A stretch of DNA of 64,000 bases from Bacteroidales bacterium (GCA_015493525.1 WGCY01000020.1:52604-116603), one strand, 5' to 3'; numbered from the stretch's first letter, positions 59,905 through 64,000 are shown. Program-made: numbers and translations. The notes: a model not told the origin generated them from the letters alone.

Positions 59905-59942
59905 AGTAAAAAAACCGTTCCTCCGCGTTTGCAACGCGGAGG
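59905..59942 (-). terminator. rho-independent terminator downstream of the PfkB kinase
   Basis: CCTCCGCG-TTTGCAA-CGCGGAGG (59920-59942), followed on the minus strand by AACGGTTTTTTT. A degenerate second copy lies at about 59960-59981. Confidence 0.6.
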
Positions 59943-60023
59943 TGTTTTCGGTGAACTTCTCCTCGTTTGCAACGTGGAGGTATCTTCCCCGGATATTTGC
60001 CATGCCTTTTTCAAAACATGCAG

Positions 60024-60932
60024 TTACCCATTGTTTTGCGGAATGTAATTGTCCTTCGACCCACACACGGCTGCCGAAAAGGCGATGCCGTTGTCGAGGC
60101 AGGCCTCCAATTGGTCCGGAATGTCTTCACTTTTCAATTTCTCCTGCACCATTCGGGCTATGACACCGGCGTTAAAGCCATCGCCGGCACCGATGGTGCT
60201 GACCACTTTTATTTTTCGGGCCGGTTTTTGGATAAGTCGGTTTCCGTGGGCTGCCAGTGCTCCCCGTTCGCCGAGGGTAACAAAAACAACAGCCTCCGGG
60301 TTGATTTGCTGCAGGGAAGCAACATAACTTTCGGGCGTTTGCTCCCCGAAAATGACCCCAAAATCTTCGTCGGAACCTTTGATAATATCCGCCATTTTCA
60401 GGTTTTCAAAGAGGGCCTGCCGGCGCGTTTTGTCCGAAAGCTGCTCCGCCATTCGGATGTTGGGATCATACATGATGCGTGTCCCCGCTTTTTGTGCGGC
60501 CCAAAGTATTTTTTCAATCTCCGGCCGGATGGCCGGGTCCAGGGCATACAACGAACCAAACAGCAGGATATCGTCCGGCTTGAATCGCTCCGGCAAAAGC
60601 AGGTTTCGCTCAGCGGGGTAGTACTTTTTGAAAGTATAAGCCGGTTTTTTCCGTTCGTCCAGTCTGGCCAGTGCCACCGACGTGGGATGCCCCGGATATT
60701 GCCGGATAAATTTTGTGGTCACGCCGTTGTTTTTCAGAAACCGGACAAGGAAATCACCCATGGCATCATCGCCTGCTTCCGAAACCAGGGCGGTCTTTAT
60801 GCCGGCGCGCGCCAGCGAAACGGCCGCATTGAGCATGGCCCCGCCGGGATGGCCGAAAGCCAGGTACTCTTCCGGCTGAACTTCTTTTTCCGTCAGCACA
60901 TCCAGCAACATTTCGCCGAGGGTATAAACCAT
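60024..60932 (-). CDS. PfkB family carbohydrate kinase (fructokinase-like)
   Basis: N-terminal MVYTLGEMLLDV and the C-terminal anion-hole motif TIGAGDGFNAG. The ATG at 60932 is preferred over the ORF-track start 61034. Confidence 0.85.
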   Translation of the reverse strand: MVYTLGEMLLDVLTEKEVQPEEYLAFGHPGGAMLNAAVSLARAGIKTALVSEAGDDAMGDFLVRFLKNNGVTTKFIRQYPGHPTSVALARLDERKKPAYTFKKYYPAERNLLLPERFKPDDILLFGSLYALDPAIRPEIEKILWAAQKAGTRIMYDPNIRMAEQLSDKTRRQALFENLKMADIIKGSDEDFGVIFGEQTPESYVASLQQINPEAVVFVTLGERGALAAHGNRLIQKPARKIKVVSTIGAGDGFNAGVIARMVQEKLKSEDIPDQLEACLDNGIAFSAAVCGSKDNYIPQNNG

Positions 60933-61057
60933 GGTTGCGTATTTTTTTACAAAGATAAAAATTAGGTGATCGTCCTGCCCCGGATGCTGGTCAGGATTTG
61001 CAATCCTGACCCTTTGGATTAAAAGATTTTCCATCTGCTTTTTGCAGAGCCGAAAGT

Positions 61058-62299
61058 GTGATAACGGCAGACTGGTCCCTAAGGGCCAGTACCGGCCTTT
61101 TTGCTATTTTTGTGCAAAACAACGGGGCTGACAGCATGTATTACATTCATAAAGATTATCTCGGCTCGTATCAAACCATTACCGATAGTGCCGGCCAAGT
61201 GGTGGAAAGGTTGAGTTTCGATCCGTGGGGACGGCGGCGTAACGCGCAAACCTGGACTTTTAACAACGTGCCTTCTTCTTATTTGTTCGACCGCGGTTTT
61301 ACGGGGCACGAACACATGGACCATTTTGCGTTGATTAACATGGGAGGCCGTGTTTACGACCCGGTGCTGGGCAATTTCCTCAGCCCCGACCCTTTTGTGC
61401 AGGCCCCTGCCAACCCGCAAAACTACAACCGGTATGGGTACGCGTTGAACAACCCCCTCAAATACACCGACCCTACCGGTTACCAGACCGCTTCGGTGCC
61501 CGGCACCGTAAGCTGGCTCGGCGGTGGCGGCGGCTGGGGCGAAAGCGGCCGGGGATTTGGCGGTAATGTAAACTGGGATTATTTTGTGCCGAATACCTCT
61601 TGGCACCAGTATTATGGAAATTACGCTTACGACACCTATAGTTGGAGCACCGGATATTATGAACATCATACGATGGAGGGTGTGGAAACCATAAGTTATG
61701 AACAAGCCTATTCCCGTGATTTGATGCCTTATGCCAGCGAATTTTATTTTGGGGCTGCTGCGGGACAAAAGTATAAGGTAATGAAAAAGGCCTATTTGAA
61801 AAGGCAGAAACAAATTTTGGAGGAATTGGAATCAACTTCAGCCTTTCTACATGATTTGAATCAGGTCATAACAGAAGCAGGCGGTTATGGGATGATGTTT
61901 GATGGGCCGGGTGACCCGCCGGGAGGGGGTGAGGATACTTATATGGCAGGAGCTTTTGTTTTAAGTGGAGCAATGATTACGGATGATGTTACAGGAGTTG
62001 GTGTTTTTGATGATTTTGCAATTCCTTTTATTCTTATTGGGGGTTATGTTTTAGATAGAACTTTAAGTCCAAATTTAGAAGGAACACATGAAAGTTTAGG
62101 ATTTCCATTTAAAGAAGTCCATGGCTTTGATAATAAAAACCCGTTTAATAATGGCCCTAAAATGCCATCTTGGCTTAAGGCAGCAGTTTGGGCTGCAACT
62201 GGGGGTGGCCTTTATTATCAGTGGTATAAAGTAATTCATCCCAGAGGAACAAGACATACAAAAAAAAATACGTTAATCATTAATCCAAGTGGAAACTAA
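61058..62299 (+). CDS. orphan (5'-truncated) RHS repeat-associated core plus C-terminal toxin module 1
   Basis: YYIHKDYLGS, FDPWGRRR, GRVYDPVLGNFLSPDPF and NNPLKYTDPTGY form an RHS core, followed by a 270-aa tail. Only about 25 codons precede the core, with a stop at 61007-61009, and the start is GTG. Confidence 0.8.
   Translation: MITADWSLRASTGLFAIFVQNNGADSMYYIHKDYLGSYQTITDSAGQVVERLSFDPWGRRRNAQTWTFNNVPSSYLFDRGFTGHEHMDHFALINMGGRVYDPVLGNFLSPDPFVQAPANPQNYNRYGYALNNPLKYTDPTGYQTASVPGTVSWLGGGGGWGESGRGFGGNVNWDYFVPNTSWHQYYGNYAYDTYSWSTGYYEHHTMEGVETISYEQAYSRDLMPYASEFYFGAAAGQKYKVMKKAYLKRQKQILEELESTSAFLHDLNQVITEAGGYGMMFDGPGDPPGGGEDTYMAGAFVLSGAMITDDVTGVGVFDDFAIPFILIGGYVLDRTLSPNLEGTHESLGFPFKEVHGFDNKNPFNNGPKMPSWLKAAVWAATGGGLYYQWYKVIHPRGTRHTKKNTLIINPSGN
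61446..61546 (+). repeat. 101-bp direct repeat, copy 1 (spans the NNPLKYTDPTGY motif and a Gly-rich linker)
   Basis: Hand alignment to 62841-62941 gives 7 mismatches and no gaps. Confidence 0.85.
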
Positions 62300-62309
62300 A
62301 ACTTAAGTC

Positions 62310-62492
62310 ATGTACGATATTTTTAAAAAAATAAGTAATATATCTATTTTCATAATAATAGTATTATTCATTTTTATTTTTTTCTTTAATGATTTACTTC
62401 CAATTCAATATAGGAAGTCTTCATATTATATTTTTTTAGTCATGTGGTTAATTTTTCCGGTTACTGAGATAATGAAAAGGAGATCAAAATAA
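62310..62492 (+). CDS. tiny 2-TM protein, candidate immunity protein for toxin module 1
   Basis: 60-aa AT-rich ORF 10 nt after the toxin stop, with two hydrophobic helices. Confidence 0.45.
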   Translation: MYDIFKKISNISIFIIIVLFIFIFFFNDLLPIQYRKSSYYIFLVMWLIFPVTEIMKRRSK

Positions 62493-62494
62493 TT

Positions 62495-62710
62495 ATGCAA
62501 AAATTATCAAAGAAAATAAGATACTTTATCGCTTATAATATTCATCAAATTATTAGTATTGTTTTTGTTATGTCAATGATTTTTCTCGTTATTTCCAGAA
62601 TATTTGACTTCGAATCATGTTTTTTAGACTATCTTTTCTTCTTTTTACTAGGTGCAAACGTGTTTAGTTATGTTTATCGATGGAGTTTAAAAGTTTTAAA
62701 TCATACGTAA
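62495..62710 (+). CDS. tiny 2-TM protein, second candidate immunity protein
   Basis: 71-aa AT-rich ORF 2 nt after the previous stop, with two hydrophobic helices. Confidence 0.45.
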   Translation: MQKLSKKIRYFIAYNIHQIISIVFVMSMIFLVISRIFDFESCFLDYLFFFLLGANVFSYVYRWSLKVLNHT

Positions 62711-62839
62711 CTGTATTCAATCCCCCCCTCCTCCGCGTTTGCCTGCCCGACTGCGTCATTCAGGCGGGTACCGCGGAGCTTTCTTCCCGGTCATTTACCC
62801 TGCCTCTTTCAAAACCGGAAAATTCCGTAGTTTTGAGAT

Positions 62840-63751
62840 ATGAACAACCCCCTCAAATACACCGACCCCACCGGTTACCAAACTGCCGCGGCGCCCGGCG
62901 CCGTAAGCTGGCTCGGCGGTGGCGGCGGCTGGGGCGAAAGCAGCGGCTGGGGGAATGTTGGCCCGCACTGGTCGCACTATATGCCCAATGTGTTTAGTGA
63001 CCCTACGTATTATTACTACGACTCGCAAGGTTATTATCACAAAGGGACTTATTTTGGAGGCGATGAGATTGTTTCGTTTAATCAGGTTATGGATGAGTAT
63101 ATTTTGCCCAATGCCATTACCACAATGGTTTTTAGCGGTTCTGATAATAATCACTATCAATATTTTAGGGGGCTGTTCTTTTCAGATGGACAACGTTGGT
63201 ACGTTGAGGATGGCTTAAATGCATTGACTGCCATTATAAATGGTGCTAAAGGAAACCATGCTTTCAGGAATGCTAATTGCTCGGCCGGTGGAGGGAAGTC
63301 TATACCTTCCTCAATAAGTTGGGCAAATAACGGAGCAAGTATTGCTGCTTATGGTGCTACTGTAGTTGGAGGCAGTGTGGGCTTTGTGAAAAGTGCTGCA
63401 ACACTGCGATGGTATGCCAATGCTTGGAGGGGGAATCCATATGTTGAAACTTTAGATATTGCCAGAATAGGAAAAGGTTTGGGAATTAGCACTTCACTCT
63501 TGGGGGCTGGGATAGGTATTGTTAATTTTGTTTTATCTGATAAAAGTTGGGGCGATTATGGCCAATTGGGTGTTTCTCTGTTGTCTGCGGGGTTAACGTT
63601 AGATGGAATAACAGCACCTGCCGGCATAGGTTTAGGAATCGTTGATGCAGCAGGTGGCTTTAACAGCTTCTACAACGCTCTGGATATTGATCAGCAACTT
63701 TATAAAAATACCGGGATTATTATGTTACCACCTGTAAATGGAATTCCATAG
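62840..63751 (+). CDS. orphan Rhs C-terminal toxin module 2 (starts at the core cleavage motif)
   Basis: Begins MNNPLKYTDPTGYQTAAAPGAVSWLGGGGGWGES, with an in-frame stop at 62834-62836. It is homologous to module 1 for about 90 aa and then diverges into a Gly/Ala/Ile-rich tail. Confidence 0.72.
   Translation: MNNPLKYTDPTGYQTAAAPGAVSWLGGGGGWGESSGWGNVGPHWSHYMPNVFSDPTYYYYDSQGYYHKGTYFGGDEIVSFNQVMDEYILPNAITTMVFSGSDNNHYQYFRGLFFSDGQRWYVEDGLNALTAIINGAKGNHAFRNANCSAGGGKSIPSSISWANNGASIAAYGATVVGGSVGFVKSAATLRWYANAWRGNPYVETLDIARIGKGLGISTSLLGAGIGIVNFVLSDKSWGDYGQLGVSLLSAGLTLDGITAPAGIGLGIVDAAGGFNSFYNALDIDQQLYKNTGIIMLPPVNGIP
62841..62941 (+). repeat. 101-bp direct repeat, copy 2
   Basis: See copy 1 at 61446-61546. 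Confidence 0.85.
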
Positions 63752-63774
63752 TTCATTCCATAAAAAATATCACT

Positions 63775-64000
63775 ATGAATATTTATTATTATTTGTATTA
63801 TAAGCTATCCAGGGTTTTAAACAGAAAGGGCAAGAATGAAATGGGGGTATTTTCTGCCCAATCTTTTTTGATTTATATAAATATAATCATTATCTATATA
63901 AAGATCTTTCATGTAACAAAAGAAAATTTTAATAGTGGTTATAAAACAATCTTAATAATTATTGGGGCAATTCTTTTTATCACAAATTCTTTTTTATTTT
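63775..64000 (+). CDS. partial AT-rich membrane ORF, candidate immunity protein for toxin module 2 (runs off the window)
   Basis: ATG at 63775, open to the window end (75 codons). Translation is MNIYYYLYYKLSRVLN...SFLIYINIIIIYIKIF...ILIIIGAILFITNSFLF, with hydrophobic helices. Confidence 0.4.
   Translation, partial: MNIYYYLYYKLSRVLNRKGKNEMGVFSAQSFLIYINIIIIYIKIFHVTKENFNSGYKTILIIIGAILFITNSFLF

Follow-up and report, generated by a model that had tools for sequence, protein, structure and literature searches.

The right-hand end of the window (the whole 64-kb stretch of DNA analysed) carries orphan Rhs toxin/immunity cassettes, and no shell or delivery gene is present at the locus. With a probability of roughly 0.55, we read it as an array made up solely of orphan Rhs C-terminal toxin/immunity cassettes, which would act both as an immunity island and as a self-transcribing recombination reservoir.

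Layout of the array

The window represents housekeeping chromosome (IDH, citrate synthase and dcw/FtsZ genes). In this core chromosome the array lies with pfkB, MarR and efflux genes at one end and a T9SS-secreted RCC1-repeat gene at the other, and it is detached from any Rhs shell gene as well as from the accessory genes seen with full-length relatives. The following features were assigned (coordinates, strand, description, basis):

59918-60047, + strand: solo leader copy beyond pfkB (blastn of L085 versus L001; seven-way alignment)
60024-60932, - strand: pfkB-family sugar kinase, 302 aa in public assemblies (Pfam PfkB, E = 1.3e-41; gene call L001 5103-6011)
60967-61051, no strand: 85-nt spacer from the synteny breakpoint to the first Rhs homology (alignment with the related genome L085)
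61052-61135, + strand: decayed 5' edge of the Rhs core stub (tblastn start at 61052; strain comparison)
61136-62299, + strand: cassette 1 toxin ORF, 387 aa from ATG (TIGR03696; PDB alignment; ortholog P0001)
61446-61549, + strand: junction repeat copy 1, GC 0.67 (repeat search of the window)
62310-62492, + strand: candidate immunity gene 1a, 60 aa, 2 TM, GC 0.20 (hydropathy; L002 copy with 1 substitution)
62495-62710, + strand: candidate immunity gene 1b, 71 aa, 2 TM, GC 0.25 (hydropathy; identical copy in L002)
62711-62839, + strand: inter-cassette leader (fold z = -4.0; seven array copies compared)
62840-63751, + strand: cassette 2 toxin ORF, 303 aa (begins M-NNPLKYTDPTGY, cassette-1-type linker, different tail)
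62841-62944, + strand: junction repeat copy 2, 92% identical to copy 1 (repeat search of the window)
63775-64000 (window edge, codon 75), + strand: candidate immunity gene 2, 117 aa at full length, 3 TM (L001 extension; hydropathy)

Cassette 1 retains the last ~130 shell residues, cassette 2 only a 12-residue cleavage-site motif, and a terminal junction stub closes the array. The GC content was 0.67-0.69 in the junctions, 0.40-0.43 in the tails and only 0.20-0.25 in the small ORFs, in agreement with the AT-rich tails and downstream ORFs described in an earlier note on this sequence. The interpretation given there stands as far as orphan cassettes without a shell are concerned; its three alternative explanations, a silent reservoir, a deletion remnant or a stand-alone module starting at GTG 61058, need revising. 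Absent from that note were the promoter-like box in a conserved leader, the third stub and the right border, the solo leader beyond pfkB, and the wide distribution of shell-less arrays in Bacteroidota.

The Rhs core stub and the missing shell

The divergently transcribed sugar kinase reported upstream is PfkB, with its start placed at 60932 by gene callers. Homology to L085 breaks off ~35 nt upstream of the start codon of pfkB, and a perfect hairpin (60989-61011) lies in the spacer that follows. Directly after a TGA at 61007-61009, the + frame opens at 61010 as stated earlier, and residues 71-157 of this frame matched TIGR03696 with E = 6.4e-17 and 61.8 bits (cut-off 32.5 bits), which bears out the proposed RHS repeat-associated core; Pfam gave a sub-threshold RHS match only. 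The core in cassette 1 ends in the DPxG autoproteolysis motif and aligned to the C-terminal ~110 residues that lead to the cleavage site in solved Rhs/TcC shells (8h8a 1042-1152; TccC3).

Using ten full-length relatives as tblastn queries, the window was matched only at 61052-61519, corresponding to query residues ~1680-2066, the last ~130 shell residues. The rest of the 64 kb contained no YD-repeat shell, the 61 kb upstream showed no homology to a shell in any frame, and none of the SpvB, FG-GAP and TcdB_midN domains of the full-length relatives was found in the window. The cassette 1 ORF begins 0-43 codons ahead of YYIHKDYLGS and has no N-terminal delivery domain. The reported absence of the shell and of this domain was therefore confirmed by tblastn, which also found no hidden YD repeats upstream of 61010. 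Assignment as a full-length Rhs/YD-repeat toxin was rejected: the core with its DPxG motif is present, but the long shell and the delivery domain are absent from the window. The earlier estimate of about 25 codons in front of the core was corrected to 43 codons of open frame before YYIHKDYLGS, with Rhs homology recognisable from 29 codons before it.

A sequencing or assembly error that hides upstream YD repeats or joins unrelated contigs at the pfkB/stub boundary is very improbable. Rhs loci are repeat-rich and often mis-assembled, and the related contigs L002 and L085 break inside the leader; however, the upstream 61 kb is free of shell homology, the pfkB start lies only 120 nt from the stub, and the same junction is found in L001 (100% identical over 9079 nt) and, diverged, in L076. 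Since L076 is an independent contig from another strain, the pfkB/stub junction is not a sequencing artefact.

Between strains, nine differences, eight of them non-synonymous, were found in the 5' region of the stub (61000-61135), all upstream of 61091, and the last 45 nt before ATG 61136 were identical. Over the 104 codons from this ATG, comparison with L076 revealed three synonymous and no non-synonymous changes. A start at GTG 61058, as suggested before, is unlikely because the surrounding stretch (61010-61090, with all nine differences) is not conserved as coding between strains, in contrast to the sequence from 61136 onward. A TAnnTTTG match, TATTTTTG, is located at 61105-61112, 24 nt ahead of ATG 61136.

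Toxin tails and candidate immunity genes

The cassette 1 ORF consists of the core stub, which includes the autoproteolysis-site motif NNPLKYTDPTGY and extends to 61483, a conserved linker QTA..PG.VSWLGGGGGWGES (to ~61546) and the tail, whose last ~125 residues contain the hydrophobic motif TYMAGA..LSG....DDVTGV.V.DD.AIPFI..G..LD. Its orphan ortholog P0001 is 95% identical, and relatives of the tail are found C-terminally in further proteins of Rhs type, among them P0159 with 1194 aa. A dN/dS of 0.225 was determined for toxin 1 (Fisher p = 1.4e-4, a statistic based on few substitutions). The immunity ORFs differed at 1 of 393 nt versus 28 of 849 nt for toxin 1 (p = 3.6e-4, again from few substitutions). 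The two small 2-TM ORFs reported downstream of the tail are indeed present, each with two hydrophobic segments; gene 1a starts 10 nt past the toxin-1 stop codon. In L002, toxin 1 is a leader-type orphan with both ORFs alongside, and L085 contains a pseudogenised toxin-1 copy as an example of cassette decay.

The second module begins with an ATG at 62840 and has a different tail, as previously described, and the junction repeat that it shares with module 1 comprises 104 nt. The C-terminal ~80 residues of toxin 2 belong to a SDKSWGDYGQLG...GGFNGFY family with four predicted hydrophobic helices; AlphaFold pLDDT values of 56-75 were reached only for residues ~220-296. The AT-rich TM ORF that had been seen to leave the window was completed by the rightward contig extension proposed earlier: candidate immunity gene 2 ends at the window-equivalent position 64128. 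Further along (L001 9208-9389), a third leader is followed by a junction stub of 26 codons, MDNPLKYANPTGYQTAPAPGAVSWLGG, and then by the 3' end of the convergent RCC1-repeat gene with its T9SS sorting domain (Por_Secre_tail on the paralog in L085). The right border of the array is located 0.3 kb past the window.

In L082 and L084, as in the window, the toxin-2 family is accompanied by a homologous 117-aa ORF; in L084 this family adjoins a full-length Rhs gene and the 117-aa ORF, and it was also found on the stub proteins P0128 and P0097. For both toxins, other genomes contain the same tip, on a different core or as an orphan, together with the same candidate immunity gene, and the small ORFs adjoin homologous tails in L002 (cassette 1) and in L082 and L084 (cassette 2). 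Neither tail has an annotated domain or matched a housekeeping domain, which the earlier note had named as contrary evidence, and the small ORFs gave no match in Pfam or NCBIfam. Both toxins are probably membrane-inserting; their C-termini are hydrophobic or glycine-rich helical, and their partners are 2-3-TM proteins.

The repeated leader and its putative promoter

Each cassette is bracketed by one ~235-nt unit composed of a leader and the junction NNPLKYTDPTGYQTA.APGAVSWLGGGGGWGES. The inter-cassette leader contains a GC-rich hairpin (62731-62778), TTTC at 62807-62810 (-33 position) and a consensus sigma-A -7 box, TAGTTTTG, at 62828-62835, 4 nt ahead of ATG 62840; the palindrome CAAAACCGGAA-AA-TTCCG-TA-GTTTTG overlaps this box. 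The box and its 4-nt spacing to ATG are kept in seven of seven array leaders, and the box is not present in the two pfkB-side copies; its frequency in the window is 4.9e-4 per position. The Flavobacterium -7 box occupies -12 to -5 (PMC9723704). The 4-nt distance therefore places the predicted transcription start at 62840, the A of the ATG; with the box so near, the transcript could equally begin within the ORF, a few bases in. Promoter, transcription start and leaderless translation are all predicted from the consensus. Other lineages have a terminator followed by TAnnTTTG and ATG-NNPLKY. Judged by such signals, the cassettes do not look silent.

The solo leader overlaps the last 8 pfkB codons in antisense and consists of the hairpin CCTCCGCG-TTTGCAA-CGCGGAGG, a second degenerate hairpin and a promoter-like part up to ATG 60045-60047, where the homology to the array leaders stops exactly (seven-way alignment). 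On the - strand, its hairpin and T-run look like a pfkB terminator. Only two leader sites are present within the 64 kb, and the one across pfkB is not accounted for by the orphan-array model.

Strain variation and occurrence in Bacteroidota

L076 encodes an identical stub protein followed by a different tail and a different candidate immunity gene; cassette content thus varies between co-occurring strains while the stub stays identical. At least nine different tails were found on the same junction. Synteny around pfkB and RCC1 differs among related genomes, indicating rearrangement. Shell-less stub/orphan arrays with 10 kb of clean upstream sequence were identified at further loci (L003, L007, L015, L036, L039, L043, L046, L054, L064, L065, L079/L080 and L082), whereas at the related locus L084 an orphan accompanies a full-length gene, as is canonical. 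Several lineages have ORFs initiated by M-NNPLKYTDPxGY, and the contigs that carry them reach 437 kb.

According to the classical model, a full-length rhs gene elsewhere in the genome recruits tips from an inactive array by homologous recombination. Such a role is established for orphan modules (PMC3150448, PMC2935791), the ~430 nt of core in the stub and the junction in every cassette are suitable homology arms, and other Bacteroidota encode full-length relatives with SpvB, FG-GAP and TcdB_midN domains that reach 66% identity. However, in a search of 5.8e9 proteins, which included the assembly of this organism (P0121, P0170), the lineage-specific junction was seen only in orphan/stub proteins of ≤420 aa, and the next best core to the stub, strain variant aside, was 72% identical. 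The silent store for an rhs gene elsewhere that the earlier note had considered was therefore left without support; an own start codon and a promoter-like box would also be needless for a purely silent store, and we regard this explanation as improbable.

It is unlikely that the array is a decaying remnant, that is, neutral debris of a former full-length rhs gene at this position or of an array split off by rearrangement, with the leader as a recent duplicate. The unconstrained 5' edge of the stub (61052-61090), the truncated terminal stub, the pseudogenised toxin-1 copy in the related genome, the synteny differences around pfkB/RCC1 and the documented rhs "relics" at conserved positions in E. 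coli (PMC2935791) would all fit such decay. Against it stand the intact state of both toxin ORFs and all three small ORFs in AT-rich DNA, the dN/dS of 0.22 of toxin 1 with none of the three stub changes non-synonymous, the -7 box kept in all seven array leaders but in neither pfkB-side copy, the exchange of cassettes behind an identical stub, and the shell-less layout across many lineages.

Comparison with known systems

The array shares with orphan Rhs-CT/immunity modules of Enterobacteria, Serratia, Dickeya and Snodgrassella (PMC2935791, PMC3150448, PMC5727410) the partial 3' core with cleavage-site motif, variable tip and small immunity gene, the GC peak at the core with an AT-rich tip, the tandem arrangement, and the recurrence of a given tip in other genomes, attached to a different core or as an orphan. 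In contrast to these modules, no full-length rhs heads the array, the upstream neighbour being pfkB on the opposite strand, and the parent family combines a signal-peptide SpvB/FG-GAP/RHS cocoon with a T9SS-CTD partner gene and is not a PAAR/VgrG-linked T6SS effector. Classical orphans are described as silent and without initiation signals, whereas cassette 2 combines the 12-residue motif with a grafted ATG (62840) and a conserved leader, the consensus box lying at -12 to -5 in silico.

The rAID-1/AID islands of Bacteroidales (Ross et al. 2019, 10.1101/471110) are defined by a 5' XerD-like recombinase and at least two co-directional genes of GC ≤ 41% with repetitive intergenic sequences; they contain toxin remnants, and their orphan immunity genes are thought to protect against contact-dependent toxins of neighbours. 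The array resembles them in its co-directional low-GC genes (tails and small ORFs, GC 0.20-0.43) and repeated leader, but it has no adjacent 5' XerD-like tyrosine recombinase and only three cassettes, and its toxin genes are intact and paired with candidate immunity genes. As the array repeats contain coding junction sequence, homologous rather than site-specific recombination is indicated. An integron-type cassette array, which would have an IntI integrase with attI and attC sites around promoterless cassettes, was rejected: no integrase is adjacent, and the repeats hold coding sequence and a promoter-like box.

Like the E. coli/Shigella rhs relics (Jackson 2009), the locus has only the 3' part of rhs and no functional full-length copy at the position; unlike them, it has intact tips and candidate immunity genes, purifying selection, strain polymorphism and promoter-like leaders. 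Orphan cdiA-CT/cdiI and Neisseria mafB-CT arrays (PMC3150448; PMC4287609; PMC4436062) similarly consist of pairs that begin at a short recombination-junction motif (VENN; here NNPLKYTDPxGY), but they belong to other delivery families and normally follow a full-length gene.

Proposed mechanism and implications

In the orphan-array model, the repeated unit would be the substrate of homologous recombination for cassette insertion, deletion and swapping between strains. Each leader would combine a terminator hairpin for the preceding cassette with a sigma-A promoter for the next (-33 TTTC, -7 TAGTTTTG), and a leaderless mRNA would begin at the grafted ATG. With such a promoter at each cassette, the tip and its immunity gene(s) would be co-transcribed without an rhs promoter. 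Delivery of the tips by the Rhs route would be impossible because there is no cocoon, signal peptide or T9SS partner. The selected function would then reside mainly in the small membrane immunity proteins, shielding the cell against Rhs toxins from neighbours, and the linked intact tips would persist as a recombination reservoir or merely through rapid cassette turnover. For selection on immunity alone, the intact 300-390-codon toxin ORFs and the purifying selection on toxin 1 and the stub are unexpected.

This selection, the own ATG and promoter-like box of each toxin, the M-NNPLKYTDP.GY-initiated ORFs in several lineages, and the transcribed and toxic orphan Rhs genes of S. alvi (PMC5727410) would agree with stub-toxin and M-NNPLKY-toxin proteins that act without a cocoon, through addiction, lysis/vesicle release or as trans-loaded cargo. 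Such independent action is nevertheless doubtful: neither protein has a signal peptide, T9SS CTD or other export signal, the 130-residue stub is too small for a cocoon by structure alignment, and the Met may be just the first usable codon chosen by gene callers. Moreover, we know of no precedent for trans-loading of an Rhs tip.

Compared with classical orphans, the missing heading rhs gene, the grafted ATG and the conserved promoter-like leader are unusual; otherwise the cassettes are recognisable orphan modules. A broader generalisation, that shell-less tips are autonomous genes in many Bacteroidota with a leader promoter, a leaderless AUG on the cleavage-site motif and functional proteins, is put forward as a long shot. 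Such proteins might be loaded in trans into a cocoon encoded elsewhere, leave the cell by a route that needs no Rhs shell, or serve as addiction modules by which immunity islands are fixed in the chromosome.

Anatomy of the array

The plus-strand frame reported in the earlier note is open from 61010, and the RHS-associated core claimed within it scored above threshold (TIGR03696, E = 6.4e-17, 61.8 bits versus a cut-off of 32.5). Aligned with solved cocoons of the Rhs, TcC and teneurin-like type (8h8a residues 1042-1152; TccC3), this stub covers their last ~110 residues and stops at the cleavage site. The divergent sugar kinase described upstream was recovered as a minus-strand pfkB kinase (start at 60932 in public gene calls), and both tiny ORFs after the toxin 1 ORF were found, with the two hydrophobic segments ascribed to each. 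The second module does begin at 62840: its ORF starts with M-NNPLKYTDPTGY at a 104-nt direct repeat (61446-61549 versus 62841-62944, 92% identity) that marks the second ORF start. The AT-richness noted for the variable regions amounted to a GC content of 0.40-0.43 for the tails and of 0.20-0.25 for the small ORFs; both copies of the junction, the repeated segment at the cleavage site, reach 0.67-0.69 at a window average of 0.45.

The public metagenome scaffold L001 is 100% identical over 9079 nt and prolongs the locus by 0.8 kb to the right. It completes the third small ORF (117 aa, three TM segments), beyond which lie a third leader, a 26-codon junction stub and the 3' terminus of a gene that runs towards the array; its paralog in a related genome encodes RCC1 repeats and a T9SS sorting domain. 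The spacer from the pfkB start to the Rhs stub contains a hairpin of 9 perfect base pairs (GGTCAGGAT-TTGCA-ATCCTGACC, 60989-61011). Part of it is duplicated in L076, another scaffold of the same sample that represents a different strain; the hairpin could be a pfkB operator or a relic terminator.

Absence of a shell gene

Ten full-length relatives obtained from the GTDB genome scan were searched against the 64-kb window by tblastn. The sole match (61052-61519) corresponded to residues ~1680-2066 of the relatives, in agreement with the earlier claim that an Rhs shell gene is missing. The remaining window is ordinary chromosome with genes for monomeric IDH, citrate synthase, PBP, FtsZ, a SusC-like protein and a GH31 protein. 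With the match confined in this way and the right border present on L001, both ends of the array are defined and no shell lies between them. L076 has the same arrangement at the pfkB/stub junction. Its occurrence in another strain excludes a sequencing or assembly artefact, to which we assign a negligible probability, and together with the tblastn result it rules out a hidden shell or a frameshift upstream. L076 additionally carries a MITE-like insert of ~150 nt (55-200), placed precisely where synteny breaks off upstream of pfkB, with terminal inverted repeats AGACCTTTACAAAAC and GTTTTGTAAAAGTCTCT and ATTAG duplicated at both ends. Among GTDB representatives, a set that does not include the window's own genome, the closest match was 66%.

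Toxin 1 and its partners

The strain comparison also bears on the start proposed at GTG 61058. Between the window and L076, nine differences fall in 61010-61090, eight of them non-synonymous in the open frame, and none in 61091-61135; the 104 stub codons from ATG 61136 hold three synonymous and no non-synonymous changes (neutral probability 0.01). This distribution argues against GTG 61058, and the functional ORF, if any, begins at ATG 61136. A TATTTTTG box lies before cassette 1 at 61105-61112.

A copy of toxin 1 with 95% protein identity was found in L002 (GCA_054011475.1) as a leader-type orphan beginning with M-NNPLKYTDPTGY, followed by the two small ORFs of cassette 1. The tails differ by 15 synonymous and 13 non-synonymous changes (dN/dS = 0.225, Fisher p = 1.4e-4), which shows purifying selection on the predicted toxin. 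The two small ORFs differ at only 1 of 393 nt, significantly less than the toxin (p = 3.6e-4), suggesting that the 3' part of the cassette was exchanged more recently. Rhs relics are known in E. coli (PMC2935791), and the related array L085 holds a toxin-1 pseudogene (TGG to TAG, plus truncation); that the present array is a neutral remnant nevertheless appears unlikely, given the selection on toxin 1.

An exhaustive search without profiles, covering 1.84e9 representative proteins, yielded only 28 relatives of the toxin 1 tail. They share a C-terminal module of ~125 residues (TYMAGA..LSG....DD.TGV.V.DDIAIPFI), which also terminates other Rhs-type proteins, including a YD-repeat protein of 1194 aa.

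Toxin 2 and the nature of the tails

Toxin 2 carries a C-terminal domain of the family characterised by SDKSWGDYGQLG...GGFNGFY. The family is also borne by the stub-carrying proteins P0128 and P0097 and by M-NNPLKYTDPSGY orphans in two further lineages (L082 and L084), in both of which a homolog of the 117-aa ORF comes after the toxin 2-family gene. Predicted toxin and candidate immunity genes are thereby shown to co-occur. The AlphaFold model of ORF2 had a mean pLDDT of 43, and its sole confidently modelled part is a bundle of four hydrophobic helices (residues ~207-291).

Neither tail gave a significant sequence match in Pfam, NCBIfam or the PDB; weak matches comprised a Lactococcin-like hit (E = 0.01) and EspP without an aligned stretch. 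An assignment of toxin function from known domains or structures was rejected, as no match reached a meaningful level. From their composition and the nature of their partners, we infer that both toxins are membrane-inserting and toxic at the membrane, with small polytopic proteins conferring immunity. Toxins acting autonomously without a shell are a quite improbable explanation of the array. The window's ten largest ORFs included no C39/ABC bacteriocin exporter and no T6SS genes.

The leader and its predicted promoter

The cassettes are separated by a leader with the following features.

Features of the inter-cassette leader
62711-62839, plus strand: inter-cassette leader of 129 nt, conserved at every available inter-cassette position
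62731-62778: GC-rich hairpin directly after the immunity stop codon (fold z = -4.0)
62807-62810: TTTC
62828-62835: TAGTTTTG, match to the -7 box

Seven array copies were compared (one each from the window, the terminal stub of L001 and L076, and two each from L002 and L085). The -7 box of Bacteroidota sigma-A, TAnnTTTG, spans -12 to -5 in the transcription-start map of Flavobacterium psychrophilum, where leaderless mRNAs account for ~5.5% (PMC9723704). By this position, the predicted +1 would fall on 62840, the A of the ATG, with TTTC at -33. The box occurs at a frequency of 4.9e-4 per position in the window, and its spacing of 4 nt to the ATG is kept in 7/7 array copies. As consensus matches, these elements predict promoter activity and leaderless translation. 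M-NNPLKY orphans, whose ATG directly precedes the cleavage-site motif, have a terminator-like hairpin and TAnnTTTG ~20-25 nt upstream in two unrelated lineages. TAnnTTTG was present upstream of four of the eight non-redundant stand-alone stubs versus one of ten full-length genes, a difference that is suggestive only.

The usual account of orphan Rhs modules is of a silent stock of parts behind a functional rhs gene, and the classical ones are described as devoid of initiation signals (PMC3150448). The present array, in contrast, does not stand behind a full-length gene and appears to possess initiation signals, as judged from the consensus matches. A silent reservoir serving an unseen rhs gene is in our view a doubtful explanation. 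A junction-peptide search for full-length carriers returned two candidates, a yield set by its word index and therefore uninformative.

Every array copy has kept a near-perfect palindrome (CAAAACCGGAA-AA-TTCCG-TA-GTTTTG, 62811-62835) that overlaps the leader's -7 box. The palindrome could serve as operator for a dimeric regulator or form an RNA hairpin close to the start codon. For the leader itself, a genome-wide REP-like repeat was rejected within the window, where only two sites exist, and so was degenerate core sequence, since upstream of NNPLKY it aligned to the core no better than background. An exact-pattern scan of JGI metagenomes for the leader gave zero matches.

A solo copy of the leader is located at the 3' end of pfkB (59918-60047), on the side opposite to the array and in the array's orientation; pfkB is consequently bracketed by leader copies. 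The solo copy overlaps the last eight pfkB codons in antisense, it ceases to resemble the array leaders precisely at the ATG 60045-60047, and it departs from the consensus at -7 (TTGTTTTG). Read on the minus strand, its hairpin and T-run would form a terminator for pfkB. The arrangement recurs in the related genome (L085 78-188). A simple inversion was discarded as its origin because the junctions would restore no intact gene, and the solo copy stands outside the model proposed below. In the GC-rich spacer between a MarR gene and pfkB, outside the array, the only Rfam match was a sub-threshold one to Flavo-1 (RF01705; 59708-59850, minus strand, 30.1 bits versus a gathering score of 42, E = 0.0018).

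Cassette exchange and rearrangement

Exchange of the predicted cassettes is evident from several loci. L076 carries the identical stub on a different tail (P0002), followed by a signal-anchored partner of 224 aa, then by a longer leader and another orphan. In public data, the lineage-specific junction NNPLKYTDPTGYQTA.APGAVSWLGGGGGWGES is carried by at least nine distinct tails, several of which are mosaics of one another. In GCA_054011475.1 (L085 1-7466), the RCC1/T9SS-CTD gene directly follows pfkB, and homology with the window (compared over 59971-61000) ends ~35 nt upstream of the pfkB ATG; the pfkB-proximal site is therefore empty in this genome. Beyond the RCC1 gene, its array opens with an incomplete leader and an M-NNPLKC orphan; no shell is present there either. 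The flanking genes are thus ordered differently from those of the window, a sign of rearrangement around the array. The ~235-nt unit of leader plus junction, which brackets every cassette and the terminal stub, would be an obvious substrate for homologous recombination.

Related loci in Bacteroidota

Among 72 related loci surveyed in GTDB genomes, ~24 are full-length, with 1600-1950 codons open upstream, and many others are short. Stubs on their own, or arrays, preceded by 10 kb without shell sequence were found at L003 (on a 4.8-Mb contig), L007, L015, L036, L039, L043, L046, L054, L064, L065, L079/L080 (with three cassettes next to IS elements) and L082 (with four). L084, which has its left flank in common with L082, is canonical: a 2048-aa Rhs gene and its partners precede the orphan. 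None of the best 120 database matches to ORF1 exceeded 750 aa. The shell-less three-cassette array of L079 (8292-9535 and 12460-14442, on a 513-kb contig) and L080 is flanked by an IS3-type transposase, and one variant of it is interrupted by an IS21 element; IS activity thus accompanies shell-less arrays.

The full-length relatives have ~2050-2350 aa, a signal peptide and SpvB, FG-GAP, TcdB_midN and RHS domains. Their upstream regions were inspected at L004, L005, L012, L017, L021, L023, L037, L047, L051, L056 and L084. The ORF immediately upstream (139-161 aa) contained the T9SS sorting domain Por_Secre_tail in 8/8 cases tested (39-51 bits), and the gene further upstream often ends with ...HLPxVPSAxEV..NG..LGEM..LLKKVEELTLY. 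This suggests a conserved operon that would tie Bacteroidota Rhs cocoons to type IX secretion; a comparable link has been proposed for TANFOR toxins (PMC7073777).

Discussion

The assignment to orphan toxin/immunity cassettes is upheld: the locus works like Rhs-CT/immunity modules minus the full-length gene ahead, and resembles the orphan modules of Enterobacteria and Snodgrassella (PMC2935791, PMC3150448, PMC5727410). With the rAID-1 islands of Bacteroidales (10.1101/471110) it shares low-GC co-directional genes and repeated intergenic sequences; unlike these, it is without the XerD-like recombinase that defines rAID-1, and its toxin genes are intact. We favour, at a probability of roughly 55%, a self-transcribed orphan-only array in which immunity, with a putative protective role, is the selected product and the linked toxin tips are a reservoir.

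In the window and a dozen comparable Bacteroidota loci, cassettes are kept, pass between strains and seem to drive their own transcription in the absence of any shell gene nearby. Should the predicted promoters prove real, immunity islands built from Rhs cassettes would be the better description of such arrays. This view, if true, would bear on the resistance of environmental Bacteroidota to contact-dependent killing, and would affect the annotation of the 300-700 aa "RHS repeat-associated core" proteins that dominate the database matches.
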